From the IMG/VR virus record IMGVR_UViG_2695420646_000007: a stretch of 14,203 nt of DNA, one strand, 5' to 3'. The first letter of the stretch is position 1; every line of letters starts with the position of its first letter. The position numbers and the translations under genes are program-made. This DNA comes from a virus (Duplodnaviria > Heunggongvirae > Uroviricota > Caudoviricetes). Positions 1 through 14,203 of this stretch are shown here, piece by piece. The notes under the pieces are model-generated. The model was not told the DNA's origin and ran no database searches. It saw only the letters and a program-made list of their open reading frames with translations.

Positions 1-705
1 CGATGCGCGAATGTCGCGGCGAAATATCTGGGAACAGAGCGGCAATAAGTCGTCATCCCATGTTTTATCCAGGGCGATCAGCAGAGTGTTAATCTCCTGC
101 ATGGTTTCATCGTTAACCGGAGTGATGTCGCGTTCCGGCTGACGTTCTGCAGTGTATGCGGTATTTTCGACAATGCGCTCGGCTTCATCCTTGTCATAGA
201 TACCAGCAAATCCGAAGGCGAGACGGGCACACTGAATCATGGCTTTATGCCGTAACATCCGTTTGGGATGCGACTGCCACGGCCCCGTGATTTCTCTGCC
301 TTCGCGAGTTTTGAATGGTTCGCGGCGGCATTCATCCATCCATTCGGTAACGCAGATCGGATGATTACGGTCCTTGCGGTAAATCCGGCATGTACAGGAT
401 TCATTGTCCTGCTCAAAGTCCATGCCATCAAAATGCTGGTTTTCATTGATGATGCGGGACCAGCCATCAACGCCCACCACCGGAACGATGCCGTTCTGCT
501 TATCAGGGAAGGCGTAAATTTCTTTCGTCCACGGATTAAGGCCGTACTGGTTGGCGACGATCAACAATGCGATGAACTGCGCATCGCTGGCATCGCCTTT
601 AAATGCCGTCTGGCGAAGAGTGGTGATCAGTTCCTGTGGGTCGACAGAATCCATGCCGACACGTTCAGCCAGCTTCCCAGCCAGCGTTGCGAGTGCTGTA
701 CTCAT
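1..705 (-). CDS. bet: Bet (Red-beta) single-strand annealing recombinase; partial, C-terminal end lies beyond the window start
   Basis: Reverse-strand translation from ATG at 705..703 gives MSTALATLAGKLAERVGMDSVDPQELITTLRQTAFKGDASDAQF...IYDKDEAERIVENTAYTAERQPERDITPVNDETMQEINTLLIALDKTWDDDLLPLCSQIFRRDIRAS, which I recognise from memory as essentially lambda Bet. About 235 of about 261 codons are in the window. Not in the ORF track because it runs off the edge. Confidence 0.9.
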   Translation of the reverse strand, partial: MSTALATLAGKLAERVGMDSVDPQELITTLRQTAFKGDASDAQFIALLIVANQYGLNPWTKEIYAFPDKQNGIVPVVGVDGWSRIINENQHFDGMDFEQDNESCTCRIYRKDRNHPICVTEWMDECRREPFKTREGREITGPWQSHPKRMLRHKAMIQCARLAFGFAGIYDKDEAERIVENTAYTAERQPERDITPVNDETMQEINTLLIALDKTWDDDLLPLCSQIFRRDIRAS

Positions 706-710
706 CCGTT

Positions 711-1007
711 TTATACCTCTGAATCAATATCAACCTGGTGGTGAGCAATGGTTTCAACCATGTACCGGATGTGTTCTGCCATGCGCTCCTGAAACTCAAC
801 ATCGTCATCAAACGCACGGATAATGGCTTTTTTGCTGGCCCCGTGGCGTTGCAAATGATCGATGCATAGCGATTCAAACAGGTGCTGGGGCAGGCCTTTT
901 TCCATGTCGTCTGCCAGTTCTGCCTCTTTCTCTTCACGGGCGATCTGCTGGTAGTGACGCGCCCAGCTCTGAGCCTCAAGACGATCCTGAATGTAATAAG
1001 CGTTCAT
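711..1007 (-). CDS. gam: Gam, RecBCD inhibitor; 98 aa, equivalent to the short GamS form
   Basis: ORF track 98 aa [98 protein letters not shown], near-identical to lambda Gam as I recall it. Stop lies 5 bp upstream of the bet start. An in-frame stop at 1062..1064 upstream of the ATG rules out a longer form. Confidence 0.88.
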
Positions 1008-1083
1008 GGCTGAACTCCTGAAAATGGCTGTGAAAATATCGCCCGCGAAATGCCAGGCTGATTAGGAAAACAGGAAAGGGGGG

Positions 1084-1494
1084 TTAGTGATTCAGGCCGT
1101 TACCGCGTCCGTCGAGAAAAACTTCTACGAGCAAATCACGGGTATAAGTGCGCTCGATGCCGCGATGCAGATAAAGCCGTCCGCGTAAATTAGCTGATGC
1201 AGTCCAGGTACCATCTTTGTGTTTGACCAGCATTCCTGGCATGACCGCGCCGCGATTAACGGTCTGTGTTCCGTAATGTTGATGAACCATAAAAACTCCT
1301 GCCCGTAAGCTGGGCTGCTGAACATATAGAGACTTCTGCGCGTATTCAGGCGGTGGATGGCCGCCGGTTGTCATAACTAAGCCGCCTCGTTGAAGCGACT
1401 GAGGTATGAAATGTTGAGTTAATTTCAGCTGGTCACACCGACGTTCACGCGTCCGTTTCACCCCTCGCACTCCCCGAAGCCTGCTGAAATTCAA
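1084..1494 (-). CDS. Early-left operon protein, possibly an N-like antiterminator; start uncertain (TTG at 1494 or GTG at 1461)
   Basis: Only sizeable ORF between gam and the predicted pL, on the correct strand. N-terminal region is arginine-rich (VKRTRERRCDQLKL), reminiscent of the arginine-rich motif of N proteins. The track start is a TTG; a GTG at 1461..1459 preceded by GGGAG would give MKRTRERR... No family match I can assert. Confidence 0.4.
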   Translation of the reverse strand: MNFSRLRGVRGVKRTRERRCDQLKLTQHFIPQSLQRGGLVMTTGGHPPPEYAQKSLYVQQPSLRAGVFMVHQHYGTQTVNRGAVMPGMLVKHKDGTWTASANLRGRLYLHRGIERTYTRDLLVEVFLDGRGNGLNH

Positions 1495-1567
1495 ACTGCG
1501 GATCTAAGCGGTCATCGCAACGGTGAATCAGGTGGTTGCCGTATCGTTGTGTTGTTGCGATATGGTG

Positions 1568-1596
1568 ATAATAGCTATTGCTATTGGTGATATCAA
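1568..1596 (-). promoter_or_regulatory. Candidate pL early-left promoter (TTGATA, 17 bp spacer, TATTAT on the minus strand)
   Basis: Minus-strand read: TTGATA (plus 1596..1591), 17-nt spacer TCACCAATAGCAATAGC, TATTAT (plus 1573..1568). The spacer contains the repeated operator-like motif. Position and orientation match lambda pL relative to N and the rex slot. Confidence 0.45.
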
Positions 1597-1646
1597 TACT
1601 TATTGCTATTGACTGATGTGTTTTGATATTAAATGTTTGATAGCAA
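1573..1646. promoter_or_regulatory. Candidate OL operator cluster: repeated TTGCTATTG motif
   Basis: TTGCTATTG at 1578..1586 (within a tandem GCTATT GCTATT G) and at 1603..1611; inverted near-copy TGATAGCAA at 1638..1646. The same 9-mer recurs in the cI-cro intergenic region. Confidence 0.45.
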
Positions 1647-1735
1647 AAAGAATTAATTTTGTGACTTGCATCGCATAGCGATAACTGAAGCAGGGATGTG
1701 GTGGTTTTTTGAGCGGTGTGTGATGAGGGGAGGGG

Positions 1736-1764
1736 ACAAAAGAAAACCCGGCACGGTGGCCGGG
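1736..1764 (-). terminator. Intrinsic terminator ending the cI-linked cargo operon
   Basis: GC-rich hairpin CCCGGC-ACGGTG-GCCGGG (1747..1764); on the minus strand it is followed by TTTTCTTTT (complement of 1736..1746). Lies 27 nt past the stop of the 1791..2597 gene. Confidence 0.6.
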
Positions 1765-1790
1765 TTATTAATTAAATTAGTCAGTTTTTT

Positions 1791-2597
1791 CTACTGTAAC
1801 ATAGAGGCAGCATTCAGCATCTTTTCGTAATATGAACGCATGTCTTCTTTGCTATATGCGTTGATAAGATTATCAGCGTGTTTTTCCAGTAGATTTAGCT
1901 GCTGTTTTGCTGACTTTTCTTGTGCTGTCGTTTCAGCGGCAAAAATTACAAATGAATCAATATTTGAATTGTATAATTCGTAGGCTTTAGTAATTGTTAA
2001 AACACTTATCGCAGCTTCACCCATTTGTTTTTTTATATTTTCAGAACGAAAATCTAATGTTTCTGTAAGATGGTATTTGCCATTTTTTAACAAAAAATCT
2101 GCAACTAACCCTTCTTCATTACTAATTGGATAATTAGCTACGATTTTATGTTGGGAAAGATCTTCAAAATACTTACTGAAAATTCCATGTTGTATAAAGG
2201 TGGATTTTAATTCAGAAAAAACCTTTTTTTTCAACTGTTTATGTGGCTGTTTTTGTGGGTTTACTAACCGATTCATTAGATCAGTAACTTTAGCTTCGTA
2301 ATCTTCGTTGGCTTGAAGAGTGAACATGCCAAATGACGATAACGATAATGCTCCCTTAAAAAGACAAGGAAGAAGTTCAGCATTGTTGATTTTTTGTGAC
2401 AAATCAAAAAGCGAGGTCGAAAGATCCTCTAAGTAATCTAAGGTAAGATCTTTGTCAATCGCTTTAAGTTTTGAAACTGAATTGAGCATACGTACGTCTA
2501 TGTCAGAGTCATGGTAAACGATCAAACCAACGTTAATCGTTTCACCTTTCTCTAAGTTCGGTGTAACTCTGATTAAGCTGTATTTGAAAGTTTTCAA
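1791..2597 (-). CDS. Hypothetical 268-aa protein, partner of the HipA-like kinase; N-terminus resembles what I recall of the DUF3037 family
   Basis: ORF track 268 aa. The TTG start overlaps the upstream gene's TGA stop (TTGA), with GGAG 10 nt upstream, indicating translational coupling. AT-rich. N-terminus KYSLIRVTPNLEKGETINVGLIVY. The next in-frame ATG is 36 codons in, so the TTG start is preferred. Confidence 0.65.
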   Translation of the reverse strand: MKTFKYSLIRVTPNLEKGETINVGLIVYHDSDIDVRMLNSVSKLKAIDKDLTLDYLEDLSTSLFDLSQKINNAELLPCLFKGALSLSSFGMFTLQANEDYEAKVTDLMNRLVNPQKQPHKQLKKKVFSELKSTFIQHGIFSKYFEDLSQHKIVANYPISNEEGLVADFLLKNGKYHLTETLDFRSENIKKQMGEAAISVLTITKAYELYNSNIDSFVIFAAETTAQEKSAKQQLNLLEKHADNLINAYSKEDMRSYYEKMLNAASMLQ

Positions 2598-3442
2598 GAT
2601 GTTATCTCCAGTCTTATGGCATTTAGCCTATCGATTCGCTCCTCGCTGTCCCACCACTTCAAAAAATACTCCTTATGCATTGGTGGCATCCATGCTTCAG
2701 GCATAGAGTTAAGTATATCAGATATAGCCTCAACTCCAATTTTTTCAATTTTGTCAAGGACAGATAATGCGCACTTTCTCAGATCATCAGTGTCGCCAAT
2801 GAATTGTTTAGCAATCGTCCAGTTTGTTGTTGTACTGGAGTCTGTTGGTAGTATATGAGGGGTATTTCGTGGCCAGCCTATAACAAAAGAGCTTAGACTA
2901 AAATCGAATGTTTTAACTATAACATTGCCTCGGGTGTTTTCCATGTATAAGTAGTTGTTGAGGTGTCTGTCAATGTTATATACAAACTGATCAAATGCAT
3001 AAATTGCCCAGAGTTGCTTCTTTAAGGATTCAGAAGCATTTGAGAGCAAATTTATCCATTGAGGACTATTGAGACCAGATTTCCAGGCTGAAAACTCTAT
3101 GCGAGAGCCAAAAACATACTCCCCATTAGCAATACACTTGAGAATTTTGCACACAGGTGTAGCGATGCCGCATTTTTCAGCTAAATTTGTGCAAAACCAT
3201 TCCGCTGCCGGTACTTGAGTTGGGTTTTGTACAGGAAAAGGTGGGGTGGAGCGCATGCTTTTAACTGCATATTCCATTTCATCAGTGGCAATAGCGAAAC
3301 CAGAAAGGTGTGCTGTGCCTAAGCTTGAAGGTGTATATTCATGAAATTCTAATTCAAACAAACTTCCTTGCTCTGGTTTCACTTCATCAGTGTTTGACTC
3401 TTGTTCTTTCGTCATCAACTTTTTTCCCCAAATCGAAGACAT
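2594..3442 (-). CDS. Atypical HipA-family (PI3/4-kinase-like fold) Ser/Thr kinase-like protein, 282 aa
   Basis: ORF track 282 aa; ATG at 3442 preceded by AAGAGG. Contains FVYNIDRHLNNYLYM followed 13 residues later by VKTFDFSLS, matching the HipA-type catalytic loop (N-x-D-x-H-x-x-N) and Mg-binding [FY]-D-[FL]-x-S pattern as I recall them. No recognisable HipA N-terminal domain or glycine-rich Q-x-K loop. AT-rich, immediately downstream of cI on the same strand. Confidence 0.7.
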   Translation of the reverse strand: MSSIWGKKLMTKEQESNTDEVKPEQGSLFELEFHEYTPSSLGTAHLSGFAIATDEMEYAVKSMRSTPPFPVQNPTQVPAAEWFCTNLAEKCGIATPVCKILKCIANGEYVFGSRIEFSAWKSGLNSPQWINLLSNASESLKKQLWAIYAFDQFVYNIDRHLNNYLYMENTRGNVIVKTFDFSLSSFVIGWPRNTPHILPTDSSTTTNWTIAKQFIGDTDDLRKCALSVLDKIEKIGVEAISDILNSMPEAWMPPMHKEYFLKWWDSEERIDRLNAIRLEITS

Positions 3443-3488
3443 GCGGACCTCTTAAATTTGAACAACATCATAATGATTAGCTAATCCG

Positions 3489-4181
3489 CTACCCATGCTT
3501 CCTATACGTCTGCGGCATGCTCCCAATAACCTTACCGAAGATGAACACCCGGTTCATCTCGTCTTTCTCGATCGGGTCCCACGGTGAGTAGCTCTTGTTA
3601 TCAGAGATAACCAGCAGCTTATCCTTCATCATTTGCAGACGCTTTACATGGGCTGTGTCGTCGTACAGAAACGCATAGATACCATCACCGTCGAAAGATT
3701 TAACCGTGATATCAACGAACAGCAGATCACCTGGTTCGATCGTTCCTGACATGCTGTCACCACGCACGTTAATGATGCGGATATTTTCCGCCTTCCTGCC
3801 ATCGAACATGTGACGAGCATCGTCAAACGAGTACTCAACCGAGCGTAGAACTTCTACAAACTCACGGTTGATTACACCCGGCCCGGCACTGACTTCTATA
3901 TCAAGAACGTCAATTTTGAAGTATTTGGAATGGCTGACAGCAGGCTTCCCTGATTGTTGACCGTCATTTCTCATCGGGCCTATGCCTGATGAGAGCCATT
4001 CTGTTCGAACACCCAATGCATTAGCTATTTCAACAATTTTTGTTGAGCCGCGCGCGTTGCCGCTTGTCAGTCTCCAGATTGTGGGTTGAGCTACGCCAGA
4101 CGCCTTTGCAAGAGCGCCTTGAGACATTCCAGATTGTTCCATCGCTAGGTTTAAGCGATCAGCAAGAGTTTCTTTTTTCAT
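3489..4181 (-). CDS. cI: CI-like prophage repressor (N-terminal HTH_XRE, C-terminal S24/LexA-like autopeptidase)
   Basis: Translation from ATG at 4181..4179: MKKETLADRLNLAMEQSGMSQGALAKASGVAQPTIWRL... (HTH), a possible Ala-Gly cleavage site in EVSAGPGV, and RGDSMSGTIEPGDLLFVD...VKRLQ (Ser/Lys dyad context). The track's 4217 start is a TTG 36 nt upstream; the ATG is preferred. Divergent from cro. Confidence 0.85.
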   Translation of the reverse strand: MKKETLADRLNLAMEQSGMSQGALAKASGVAQPTIWRLTSGNARGSTKIVEIANALGVRTEWLSSGIGPMRNDGQQSGKPAVSHSKYFKIDVLDIEVSAGPGVINREFVEVLRSVEYSFDDARHMFDGRKAENIRIINVRGDSMSGTIEPGDLLFVDITVKSFDGDGIYAFLYDDTAHVKRLQMMKDKLLVISDNKSYSPWDPIEKDEMNRVFIFGKVIGSMPQTYRKHG

Positions 4182-4188
4182 AAGTTTT

Positions 4189-4217
4189 AATTTATACGCT
4201 TGCGTATTGATGGTCAA
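4189..4217 (-). promoter_or_regulatory. Candidate pRM (maintenance promoter) giving a near-leaderless cI mRNA
   Basis: Minus-strand read: TTGACC (plus 4217..4212), 17-nt spacer, TAAATT (plus 4194..4189), ending 8 nt before the cI ATG. Overlaps the palindrome ATACGC-TT-GCGTAT (4194..4207). Confidence 0.35.
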
Positions 4218-4225
4218 AACACGTT

Positions 4226-4283
4226 TTGCTATTGCTTGGATTAATACGCATTGCTATTATTCATTCATTGCAATACCAATAGG
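4226..4283. promoter_or_regulatory. Candidate OR operator cluster: TTGCTATTG motif copies plus palindromic ATTGCAAT
   Basis: TTGCTATTG at 4226..4234, TTGCTATTA at 4251..4259, and CATTGCAATACCAATAGG at 4266..4283 containing the palindrome ATTGCAAT. Same motif as in the pL region, as expected for operators bound by one repressor. Confidence 0.45.
4232..4260 (+). promoter_or_regulatory. Candidate pR early-right promoter (TTGCTT, 17 bp spacer, TATTAT)
   Basis: TTGCTT at 4232..4237, 17-bp spacer, TATTAT at 4255..4260, 31 nt upstream of the cro ATG. The -10 hexamer is embedded in an operator motif copy, mirroring the pL arrangement. Confidence 0.45.
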
Positions 4284-4291
4284 AATTGATA

Positions 4292-4519
4292 ATGACAAAT
4301 CAAACCATTCAACTCGCAATCAGTATTACAGGTAGTCAAAAACGACTGGCAGATCTATGCGGTGTAGCCCAACCCACTGTTTGGCGTTGGCTACACGGTG
4401 GCGGAATTGATGCCCGCTATGTAATGAAAATTGTCTCAGCCACTGGTGGAAAGATTAAACCAGCAGATATTCGTCCCGACCTCGCACCATTGTTTAACGC
4501 GAGTAATTCTGCCGCCTAA
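4292..4519 (+). CDS. cro: Cro-like HTH repressor
   Basis: ATG at 4292 with AGGAA 7 nt upstream; MTNQTIQLAISITGSQKRLADLCGVAQPTVWRWLHGG... has a Cro/CI-type helix-turn-helix. Divergent from cI across a 110-bp operator region. The track's 4286 start is a TTG. Confidence 0.8.
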   Translation: MTNQTIQLAISITGSQKRLADLCGVAQPTVWRWLHGGGIDARYVMKIVSATGGKIKPADIRPDLAPLFNASNSAA

Positions 4520-4527
4520 ACTGCGGC
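4511..4527 (+). promoter_or_regulatory. BoxB-like stem-loop (candidate nutR element) overlapping the cro stop codon
   Basis: GCCGC-CTAAACT-GCGGC: 5-bp GC-rich stem with a 7-nt A-rich loop and no following U-tract, so it is not a terminator. Sits immediately downstream of cro, where lambdoid nutR lies. I could not identify a boxA. Confidence 0.3.
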
Positions 4528-4543
4528 GTTAACTGATAAGGCA

Positions 4544-5089
4544 ATGACTATGCAACCACTTACATACCAACAGACTAGCGGATTTATCCCGACTGCGGTG
4601 ATAAATCGTTCTCAAATAAAACAGGTGCCAGGCCACGAAAAAATCCGTGATGCCATCCGCGCCTGGTCGGCTGTAGATAATCAGGATGTCGTTGCCGCAC
4701 TCATTGTGAATGAGTATCGAGCACAGGGCGGCGGCACTATCGATTTTTCTGATGATGTCAGTCGTGCACGCCAGAAGCTGTTCCGCTTTCTCGATAACAA
4801 ATTCGATTCTGAAAAATACCGAAATAACGTGCGTGAACTGACTCCAGCAATTCTGGCAGTACTACCGCTGAAATATCGCGGCCACCTGGTTGAGCAGGAT
4901 AGCTTCATGGCTCGGCTGGCTGAAATGGAAAAGGAACTCAGTGAGGCAAAACAGGCTGTCATTCTCAACGCACCACGCCACCAGAAACTGAAGGAGATGA
5001 GTGAAGGCATTGTGTCGATGTTTCGTGTGGACCCGGATTTGGCTGGTCCACTGATGGCGATGGTCACCACCATGCTGGGGGCAATATGA
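4544..5089 (+). CDS. YdaT-like (DUF1019) protein in the cII position
   Basis: 181 aa; ATG preceded by TAAGG. Motifs NEYRAQGGG and LTPAILAVLPLKYRGHL resemble what I recall of Rac-prophage YdaT family proteins, which follow cro-like genes. The family call is from memory and unverified. Confidence 0.55.
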   Translation: MTMQPLTYQQTSGFIPTAVINRSQIKQVPGHEKIRDAIRAWSAVDNQDVVAALIVNEYRAQGGGTIDFSDDVSRARQKLFRFLDNKFDSEKYRNNVRELTPAILAVLPLKYRGHLVEQDSFMARLAEMEKELSEAKQAVILNAPRHQKLKEMSEGIVSMFRVDPDLAGPLMAMVTTMLGAI

Positions 5090-5175
5090 CAGGTTCAGAA
5101 ATGGCGAAAGCCGGTCTGCGCGAACAGAACCGACTTTCAGGTGCAAATCGTAACACACTCATTGCGGGAGGAATT

Positions 5176-6105
5176 ATGGCAAACACTGCTGAGATATTCA
5201 ATTTTCCAGTGCCGGATGTGGCACAAAAGGAGCCGCGCGTGGCAGATCTCGATGATGGTTATACGCGCATTGCAAATGAGTTGCTGGAAGCTGTGATGCT
5301 GGCCGGATTAACACAGCACCAGCTTCTGGTCTTCCTGGCTGTCATGCGCAAAACATATGGCTTTAATAAAAAACTGGATTGGGTGAGCAACGAGCAACTT
5401 TCCGAATTGACCGGGATATTGCCGCACAAGTGTTCTGCTGCAAAAAGCGTTCTGGTAAAGCGTGGGATTCTTATTCAGAGCGGGCGGAATATCGGCATTA
5501 ATAATGTGGTCAGTGAATGGTCAACATTACCCGAATCAGGTAAGAAAAATAAAGTTTACCTGAAAGAGGTAAATTTACCTGAATCAGGTAAGAAAAGTTT
5601 ACCCAAATCAGGTAAAGGCGTTTACCCGAATCAGGTAAACACAAAAGACAAACTAACAAAAGACAATATAAAACCTTTTTCGTCCGAGAATTCTGGCGAA
5701 TCCTCTGACCAACCAGAAAACGATCTTCCTGTGGAGAAACCAGATGCTGCAATTCAGAGCGGCAGCAGGTGGGGGACAGCAGAAGACCTGACCGCCGCAG
5801 AGTGGATGTTTGACATGGTGAAGACCATCGCGCCATCAGCCAGAAAACCGAATTTTGCAGGGTGGGCTAACGATATCCGCCTGATGCGTGAACGTGACGG
5901 ACGTAACCACCGCGACATGTGCATGCTGTTCCGCTGGGCATGCCAGGACAACTTTTGGTCTGGTAACGTGCTGAGCCCGGCCAAACTTCGCGACAAGTGG
6001 ACCCAACTCGAAATCAACCGTAACAAACAACAGGCTGGCGTGACAGCCGGAAAACCAAAACTCGACCTGACAAACACAGACTGGATTTACGGGGTGGATC
6101 TATGA
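5176..6105 (+). CDS. O: Replication initiator O; C-terminal half lambda-type, N-terminal origin-binding half divergent
   Basis: ATG at 5176 with GGGAGG 5 nt upstream gives MANTAEIFNFPVPDVAQKEPRVADLDDGY... The C-terminal YSSENSGESSDQPENDL...NTDWIYGVDL is near-identical to lambda O as I recall it. The ORF track offers an alternative upstream ATG at 5086 overlapping the previous stop. Iterons lie inside the gene. Confidence 0.85.
   Translation: MANTAEIFNFPVPDVAQKEPRVADLDDGYTRIANELLEAVMLAGLTQHQLLVFLAVMRKTYGFNKKLDWVSNEQLSELTGILPHKCSAAKSVLVKRGILIQSGRNIGINNVVSEWSTLPESGKKNKVYLKEVNLPESGKKSLPKSGKGVYPNQVNTKDKLTKDNIKPFSSENSGESSDQPENDLPVEKPDAAIQSGSRWGTAEDLTAAEWMFDMVKTIAPSARKPNFAGWANDIRLMRERDGRNHRDMCMLFRWACQDNFWSGNVLSPAKLRDKWTQLEINRNKQQAGVTAGKPKLDLTNTDWIYGVDL
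5527..5639. repeat. Replication origin iterons: five copies of a roughly 19-bp element TTTACC(C/T)GAATCAGGTAAA, followed by an AT-rich tract
   Basis: Copies at 5527..5544, 5555..5573 (degenerate), 5574..5592, 5598..5616 and 5621..5639; each is internally palindromic (TTTACC...GGTAAA). AT-rich stretch 5640..5685 follows. Same architecture as ori-lambda inside O, but a different iteron sequence. Confidence 0.75.
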
Positions 6106-14031: not shown

Positions 14032-14127
14032 ATGAAATCCATGGATAAGTTAACAACGGGCATTGCCTACGGCACCTCCGCAGGCAGTGCTGGCTACTGG
14101 TTTTTACAGCTGCTCGATAAAGTGTAA
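14032..14127 (+). pseudogene. Truncated S21-type pinholin start (31 codons) with dual-start MKSM motif
   Basis: GGAGGTGAGG then ATG at 14032; [31 protein letters not shown] then TAA. The first 27 or so residues match the phage 21 / DLP12 EssD holin N-terminus from memory; that family is about 71 aa. No alternative frame continues the homology. Confidence 0.4.
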
Positions 14128-14160
14128 GCGTCAACGGAGCACCGTATTGACGCTTATTTA
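14128..14160 (+). terminator. Hairpin with T-rich tail directly after the truncated holin frame
   Basis: GCGTCAA-(12 nt loop)-TTGACGC (14128..14153) followed by TTATTTATTGG. Stem is 7 bp; the U-tract is interrupted, so this is a weak terminator call. Confidence 0.3.
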
Positions 14161-14203
14161 TTGGTGAGTACTACGTTCCATGGCAGGAGTTCATCAACTC
14201 GGT

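Follow-up and report, generated by a model that had tools for sequence, protein, structure and literature searches.

Close to the end of the prophage DNA analysed here, a stretch of 14,203 nt which we refer to as the window, a holin frame of the S21 type starts regularly and stops after 31 codons, and a hairpin overlaps its stop codon. The original prediction, made from the letters of the window, had interpreted this arrangement as a lysis module that is broken or replaced at about position 14120, or alternatively as a remnant peptide. The question raised by this locus is thus what terminates the frame, and whether the remainder of the lysis cassette has been lost.

A class II holin frame that ends in the loop between its transmembrane domains

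The beginning of the frame is that of an S21-type pinholin. The Shine-Dalgarno sequence GGAGGTGAGG (14020-14029, plus strand) was read directly and is identical in intact essD loci. It is followed by ATG AAA TCC ATG, which provides the dual starts Met1 (ATG at 14032) and Met4 (ATG at 14041). The truncated frame, here called essD', comprises 31 codons and a TAA stop codon (14032-14127, plus strand; TAA at 14125-14127). Its bases 14032-14123 originate from essD, while 14124-14127 originate from the insertion sequence (IS) described below. The 31-aa peptide matches the Pfam profile PF04971 ('Bacteriophage P21 holin S') with 41.9 bits and an E-value of 9.8e-11 (score cut-off 26 bits), which bears out the S21-type N-terminus that had been predicted. 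The match covers only positions 1-27 of the 64 profile positions, and the intact 71-aa allele in L002 (3183-3398) scores 120.9 bits over positions 1-63.

Three characteristics of class II holins were compared. The dual-start motif behind a Shine-Dalgarno sequence is present in essD'. The context of a lysis cassette is also present, with the late antiterminator Q upstream in the window and with lysozyme and Rz genes which, outside the window, follow the IS in a complete genome (L017, see below). Two transmembrane domains (TMDs) in one polypeptide are not encoded: the frame stops after TMD1, as had been predicted, and ends in the TMD1-TMD2 loop, between LLDKV and TPSQ. The part coding for TMD2 is found in L017, 2.54 kb downstream of essD'. 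We conclude that essD' is a disrupted member of the class II holins (pinholins) and is a pseudogene.

The similarity to EssD of DLP12 and to S of phage 21 extends over the M-K-S-M dual start, TMD1 and the YWFLQ aromatic patch, and the location is shared as well, with Q on the upstream side and a 165-aa lysozyme and Rz on the downstream side. Unlike these proteins, essD' encodes only residues 1-31, with TMD2 and the charged C-terminus located 2.5 kb away on the other side of the IS. A homologue of the intact 71-aa EssD is present in 438 phage records, and for 435 of these at least 80% of the query is matched. The 31-aa product has already been deposited under the name 'phage lysis protein EssD' (CTT34386.1 and others).

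The frame is terminated by the right end of ISEc23

The breakpoint could be defined to the base and is located between the second and third base of essD codon 31 (14123/14124). The intact gene in L002 reads ...GAT AAA GTC ACG CCC TCA CAG TGG... where the window reads ...GAT AAA GTG TAA GCG TCA ACG G.... Upstream of this point, the 5' 92 bases of essD' are 100% identical to intact 71-codon alleles, and the more extended region 13850-14123 (274 bases) likewise agrees at every base with intact 71-codon essD loci from many E. coli genomes. When region 13850-14203 was compared by BLAST to 5,426 complete RefSeq E. coli genomes, hundreds of annotated essD loci matched at 100% identity, and all of these matches stop at window position 14123.

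Across the breakpoint, 14119-14203 (85 bases) is 100% identical to sequence in thousands of E. coli chromosomes. The same IS end also occurs in plasmids of E. coli and Klebsiella, and the annotation of this sequence reads 'IS66-like element ISEc23 family transposase'. Identities of this length on the two sides of the breakpoint are far more than chance would give. With the first bases of the IS, G-TAA-GCG, codon 31 becomes GTG (Val) and is immediately followed by the TAA stop codon. Because everything from 14124 onward is IS DNA, no other frame at the junction continues the holin sequence, and the earlier observation to this effect is thereby explained.

A truncated frame may also result from a sequencing or assembly error, and correction of one base near 14120-14130 would then restore a full-length holin frame. 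There is, however, zero similarity to essD after 14123; instead, 80 of 80 bases are identical to an IS terminus which starts with the canonical GTAAGCG. In addition, the same junction is found in separate assemblies (L004, L005, L006 and L017) and in deposited proteins such as CTT34386.1. On the basis of the IS terminus identity and of this recurrence an error was excluded as the cause of the truncation, its probability being practically nil.

The IS end in the window (14124-14203, minus strand) is cut by the window end and is 100% identical to annotated copies of ISEc23, an IS66-family element. The right terminal inverted repeat (IRR), GTAAGCGTCAACGGAGCACCGTAT, occupies 14124-14147. The other end (IRL) reads GTAAGCGTAAACTGACCGCCGTAT in L004, and a base-by-base comparison by hand of the two ends of this IS copy showed agreement at 20 of the first 24 positions. 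The last 16 codons of tnpC, which were also translated by hand and end with ...RVDELLPWNVVLTNK, are encoded at 14154-14203 on the minus strand. The stop codon TAA is seen as TTA at 14154-14156 on the plus strand, and the annotated tnpC coding sequence in L001 ends, on the opposite strand, at the base equivalent to window position 14154.

Both L004 and L017 contain ISEc23 at its full length of 2,532 bp. In L004 the element is complete and codes for tnpA (HTH_Tnp_1), tnpB (TnpB_IS66) and tnpC, with a TnpC of 537 aa that has all four IS66 domains (LZ, zf, DDE_Tnp_IS66 and IS66_C). It is 99.84% identical over 2,531 nt to ISEc23 copies annotated by PGAP, with a range of 99.8-100% among these PGAP-named copies. 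Target-site duplications of IS66 elements are 8 bp long (PMC6778807). Four further ISEc23 copies have the ends GTAAGCG...CGCTTAC, and the 8-bp duplication is clean for three of them (GACTAAAT, ATAATGTC and GTTAAAGT), while 7 of 8 bases agree for the fourth. The assignment to IS66/ISEc23 is thus based on the GTAAGCG terminal repeats, on the gene order tnpA-tnpB-tnpC with a DDE_Tnp_IS66 domain, on the 8-bp duplication and on near-identity to named copies. Terminal repeat, gene layout, the 537-aa TnpC, length and duplication are all the same as in other copies. Both partners, essD and ISEc23, are well known, and their combination is an ordinary IS insertion allele in which only the site is particular. 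A target preference for ...AAAGT is not claimed, as a BLAST query that includes six flank bases biases the top matches towards similar flanks.

Both sides of the insertion in a complete genome

The window ends 80 bp into the IS, and what follows in the source genome was deduced from identical sequences elsewhere. The most informative of these is L017 (CP010238.1), a complete E. coli chromosome of 4.80 Mb from GenBank, with 100% identity to window 3257-14203 over 10,947 bp. It was found by look-up of the 195-aa AraC-like ORF of the window and is outside the RefSeq set that was searched by BLAST; none of the 5,426 complete genomes in that set covers the essD-IS junction.

The IS is located at 10868-13399 in L017 and has the octamer GATAAAGT on either side. 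In the window, the left copy of this target-site duplication (14116-14123) corresponds to essD codons 29-31. After the second copy, essD continues with CACGCCCTCACAGTGG (CACGCCCTCACAGTGGGC...), and the 3' part of essD is followed by the genes for a 165-aa lysozyme, a 155-aa Rz, Nu1, gpA, gpW and portal. The stretch downstream of the IS is colinear with sister prophages that carry an intact essD (7,189 bp, 98.7%).

We consider it about 90% probable that the truncation is due to a simple transposition of ISEc23 into essD with duplication of the 8-bp target GATAAAGT, because L017 shows this octamer at both IS ends, resumption of essD, and colinear downstream genes. In this scenario, the 2,532-bp element would have transposed into the 71-codon gene for the S21-type class II holin of a lambdoid prophage and would have inserted with tnpA-tnpB-tnpC on the minus strand; it is therefore the right terminal repeat that abuts the 5' part of essD.

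On the evidence of the gene order in L017, the lysis cassette appears to be interrupted rather than deleted or replaced, and the prophage appears to be otherwise full length. Of the original alternatives, a broken lysis module is thus retained and a replaced one is not, since the rest of essD, endolysin and Rz follow the IS; the latter two had been proposed as genes to be sought beyond the window. The break placed at about 14120 corresponds to 14123/14124 and can be called a recombination junction insofar as transposition is meant. A defective domesticated prophage does not agree with the morphogenesis genes, which are intact after the IS in L017. It looks like a recently disabled, otherwise full-length lambdoid prophage and not like an old domesticated remnant.

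Four 1-bp homopolymer indels are the only differences between the IS copy in L017 and that in the draft, and they leave tnpC and tnpA of L017 fragmented in the gene calls. These indels are likely to be long-read errors and suggest that the L017 assembly is error-prone; genuine indels would mean that the IS copy in L017 is dead.

Exact matches to the essD-IS junction were not found in genome, metagenome or viral contig collections. The reciprocal junction (IRL, eight undefined bases and the 3' part of essD) was absent from metagenome and genome contig collections, and with a synthetic query of 102 nt no record among complete E. coli genomes exceeded 75% coverage.

A draft contig that continues into a genomic island

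A different continuation is found in a draft contig (L004/L018, from GCA_001285305.1), of which L004 is 100% identical to window 6032-14203. Here, the IS is followed by TAATAAAGCTTTTG... and a CP4-57-like island with genes for a 150-aa protein, a WYL regulator, a GTPase and AlpA as well as Dpd genes. The 8-bp duplication is absent at this IS, the island-side flank being TAATAAAG. Mismatched flanking 8-mers are an accepted signature of recombination between two IS66 elements (PMC6778807). Strain EC0430 has both regions but lacks the IS, and there a distance of 1.37 Mb separates the two flanks, whose orientations are opposite, as fits an inversion. The IS might thus represent a rearrangement junction, where recombination between two ISEc23 copies or a one-step intramolecular transposition inverted about 1.4 Mb. 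The 5' part of essD would then adjoin the CP4-57-like island, and the remaining lysis cassette would be far away.

We consider such a rearrangement improbable. In L017, the only complete genome with the junction, the insertion is simple and the duplication perfect. The contig L004 stems from a short-read draft and crosses a 2.5-kb IS within which the contigs of two other drafts from the same lineage (L005 and L006) break, so that a chimeric path is plausible. When the two sites are placed on the map of E. coli K-12, the inversion would presumably be within one replichore, and such an inversion would normally be selected against. Even if the rearrangement were true for that isolate, it would be secondary to the same insertion into essD. 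We therefore favour a chimeric short-read assembly through a multicopy IS over a real inversion as explanation of the join in L004, and retain the simple insertion of ISEc23 as the origin of the truncation. Short-read contigs through ISEc23 can be misleading with respect to what lies beyond the element.

The island of the draft contig adjoins a Dpd cluster for 7-deazaguanine DNA modification (L004 10625-16096, corresponding to L018 13400-20588).

The hairpin is part of the IS end

The hairpin (14124-14157) is located wholly inside the IS end. It consists of a subterminal palindrome with the arms TAAGCGTCAA (14125-14134) and TTGACGCTTA (14147-14156) and of an inner 4-bp stem. The RNA fold has 10+4 pairs and a dG of -17.8 kcal/mol on the plus strand (z = -4.6), where none of 200 shuffled sequences was as stable; on the minus strand, dG is -17.0 (z = -6.0). 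A hairpin with a 7-bp stem that directly follows the frame had been predicted. Its existence was confirmed and it turned out to be stronger, but it overlaps the essD' stop codon instead of following it, and it overlaps the tnpC stop codon as well. It cannot be considered a separate feature, being part of the IS66-family terminus which also supplies the TAA. This is a clean example of an IS end that makes a short in-frame ORF together with an apparent terminator hairpin and thereby mimics gene decay, an impression which arises if the sequence at hand covers a single side of the junction. Beyond correct annotation, the finding matters little.

The palindrome is absent from the other end of ISEc23 (IRL) and from the equivalent end of ISCro1, a further IS66-family element. 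A scan of 13700-14203 for the terminator consensus on both strands revealed no terminator-like site; the tail after the stem is ATTTATTGG. Interpretation as a Rho-independent terminator was rejected, as the hairpin is outside the terminator consensus. Within the IS, the hairpin could stabilise the 3' end of the tnpC transcript or be part of the end that is recognised during transposition.

Predicted consequences for lysis

For S21, TMD2 has been described as both necessary and sufficient to form the pore, with the timing set by the N-terminus, and the two TMDs are joined by the loop LDQVSPSQ (bioRxiv 10.1101/2021.04.20.440580). By comparison, the 31-residue product would consist of the cytoplasmic N-terminus, TMD1 and 4 loop residues (it ends with LLDKV), and would not be able to form a pore because TMD2 is missing. 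Translation of TMD2 by itself is not expected either, since ATG, GTG and TTG are all absent from the frame that leads from the IS into the 3' part of essD until the middle of TMD2 is reached. In L017, the gene call for a 72-aa 'holin' begins at ATA, which is not a start codon. A plausible C-terminal remnant (MLGSLVFGLL..., 31 aa) was absent from the protein collection upon exact look-up, a result that is uninformative.

The gene for Q (quuD-like, 125 aa; 10553-10930, plus strand) was assigned by its quuD annotation in L003 and by PF06530, and Q drives transcription toward essD. Polymerase modified by Q should still be able to cross the IS and to transcribe the genes for endolysin, Rz and structural proteins. 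We thus expect a holin-null prophage and not a dead late operon. After induction, lysis would be absent, or would be slow and ill-timed via spontaneous release of a SAR-type endolysin; the N-terminus of the L017 endolysin, AAAIGGGAIAIASVLITG, looks like a putative signal-anchor-release domain. An otherwise complete lambdoid prophage would then lyse poorly or not at all once it is induced. Loss of the holin would be one common first step by which a prophage is locked into its host.

It might be argued that the TMD1-only peptide is a retained functional product, such as an antiholin-like inhibitor which acts in trans on related pinholins. The Shine-Dalgarno sequence, both starts and the whole of TMD1 are intact in a frame downstream of Q, and the allele occurs in several isolates. 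If made from the Q-dependent late transcript, the peptide might delay or block lysis by co-resident or incoming lambdoid phages, and an IS accident would have turned into a small anti-lysis factor. We consider both the retained function and this effect on other phages to be very unlikely. There is no sign of selection, the stop codon is an accident of the IS end, and all carriers that were found are near-identical, as would fit a single recent event in a single lineage; a function is backed by neither experiment nor conservation. A disrupted holin gene thus remains our interpretation of essD'.

Related insertions and occurrence of the allele

In E. coli K-12, nmpC::IS5 in DLP12 is another case of an IS-disrupted prophage gene. 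A second IS66-family element, ISCro1, was found in three sister prophages that have an intact essD (L020, L022 and L024, at about 12210-14920); it follows the lysis cassette at a distance of about 150 bp and has the 8-bp duplication GGATAACT. These cases have in common with the one described here that an IS is located in the late region of a lambdoid prophage. They differ from it as here the holin gene itself has been struck, and the insertion should thus directly affect lysis. With ISCro1 in the sister prophages and ISEc23 in the window, the late region of this prophage family has been struck repeatedly by IS66-type elements.

Counts of the 31-aa product (648 blocks and 496 contigs) are unusable as a measure for the prevalence of the IS allele. 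They are inflated because L007-L011 are wild-type essD contigs which end at ...GATAAAGTCA and give rise to partial gene calls. The 31-aa protein cluster also holds many entries of 28-36 aa for 'partial EssD'. The five contigs L007-L011 are long and come from unrelated assemblies and metagenomes, and all end at position 8094. This corresponds to window position 14125, in wild-type essD and two bases beyond the IS insertion site. The shared end is probably due to a branch in the assembly graph that is caused by multicopy or mosaic lysis cassettes.

Prophage context and cargo genes

The upstream part of the window matches a lambdoid prophage that is integrated beside ybhC and carries bet, gam, the repressor gene, O, P, ninE, rusA and Q. 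L003 is 99.4% identical to window 1-10912.

Between Q and essD the window carries cargo genes (11086-13844). These are a Blc-like lipocalin gene (11086-11610, minus strand), a YbgA-family gene coding for 2-thiouracil desulfurase and DUF1722 domains (11803-12762, plus strand), and a gene for an AraC-type regulator which is split (about 13114-13248 and 13257-13844, plus strand). The AraC-type gene (13105-13844) is present as pieces of 44/47 aa and 195 aa in the window and as a single ORF of 243 aa in L007-L011, while the copy in L002 is marked 'frameshifted' by RefSeq. As it is split, a second cargo gene is also a pseudogene. The closest relatives among complete genomes have a porin gene at the position where the window has the lipocalin and YbgA-family genes (11086-12762). 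This pair represents a swapped cargo cassette, at the position where Stx phages carry their toxin genes.

Two further observations were made. A homologue of the DNA polymerase III theta subunit (8145-8393) is annotated as a pseudogene with an internal stop in L003 and has no gene call in L004, which is identical to the window in this region. Beside the repressor gene, a DUF3037 gene and a HipA-like gene are encoded on the minus strand (1791-3442), and these could represent a toxin or defence pair.
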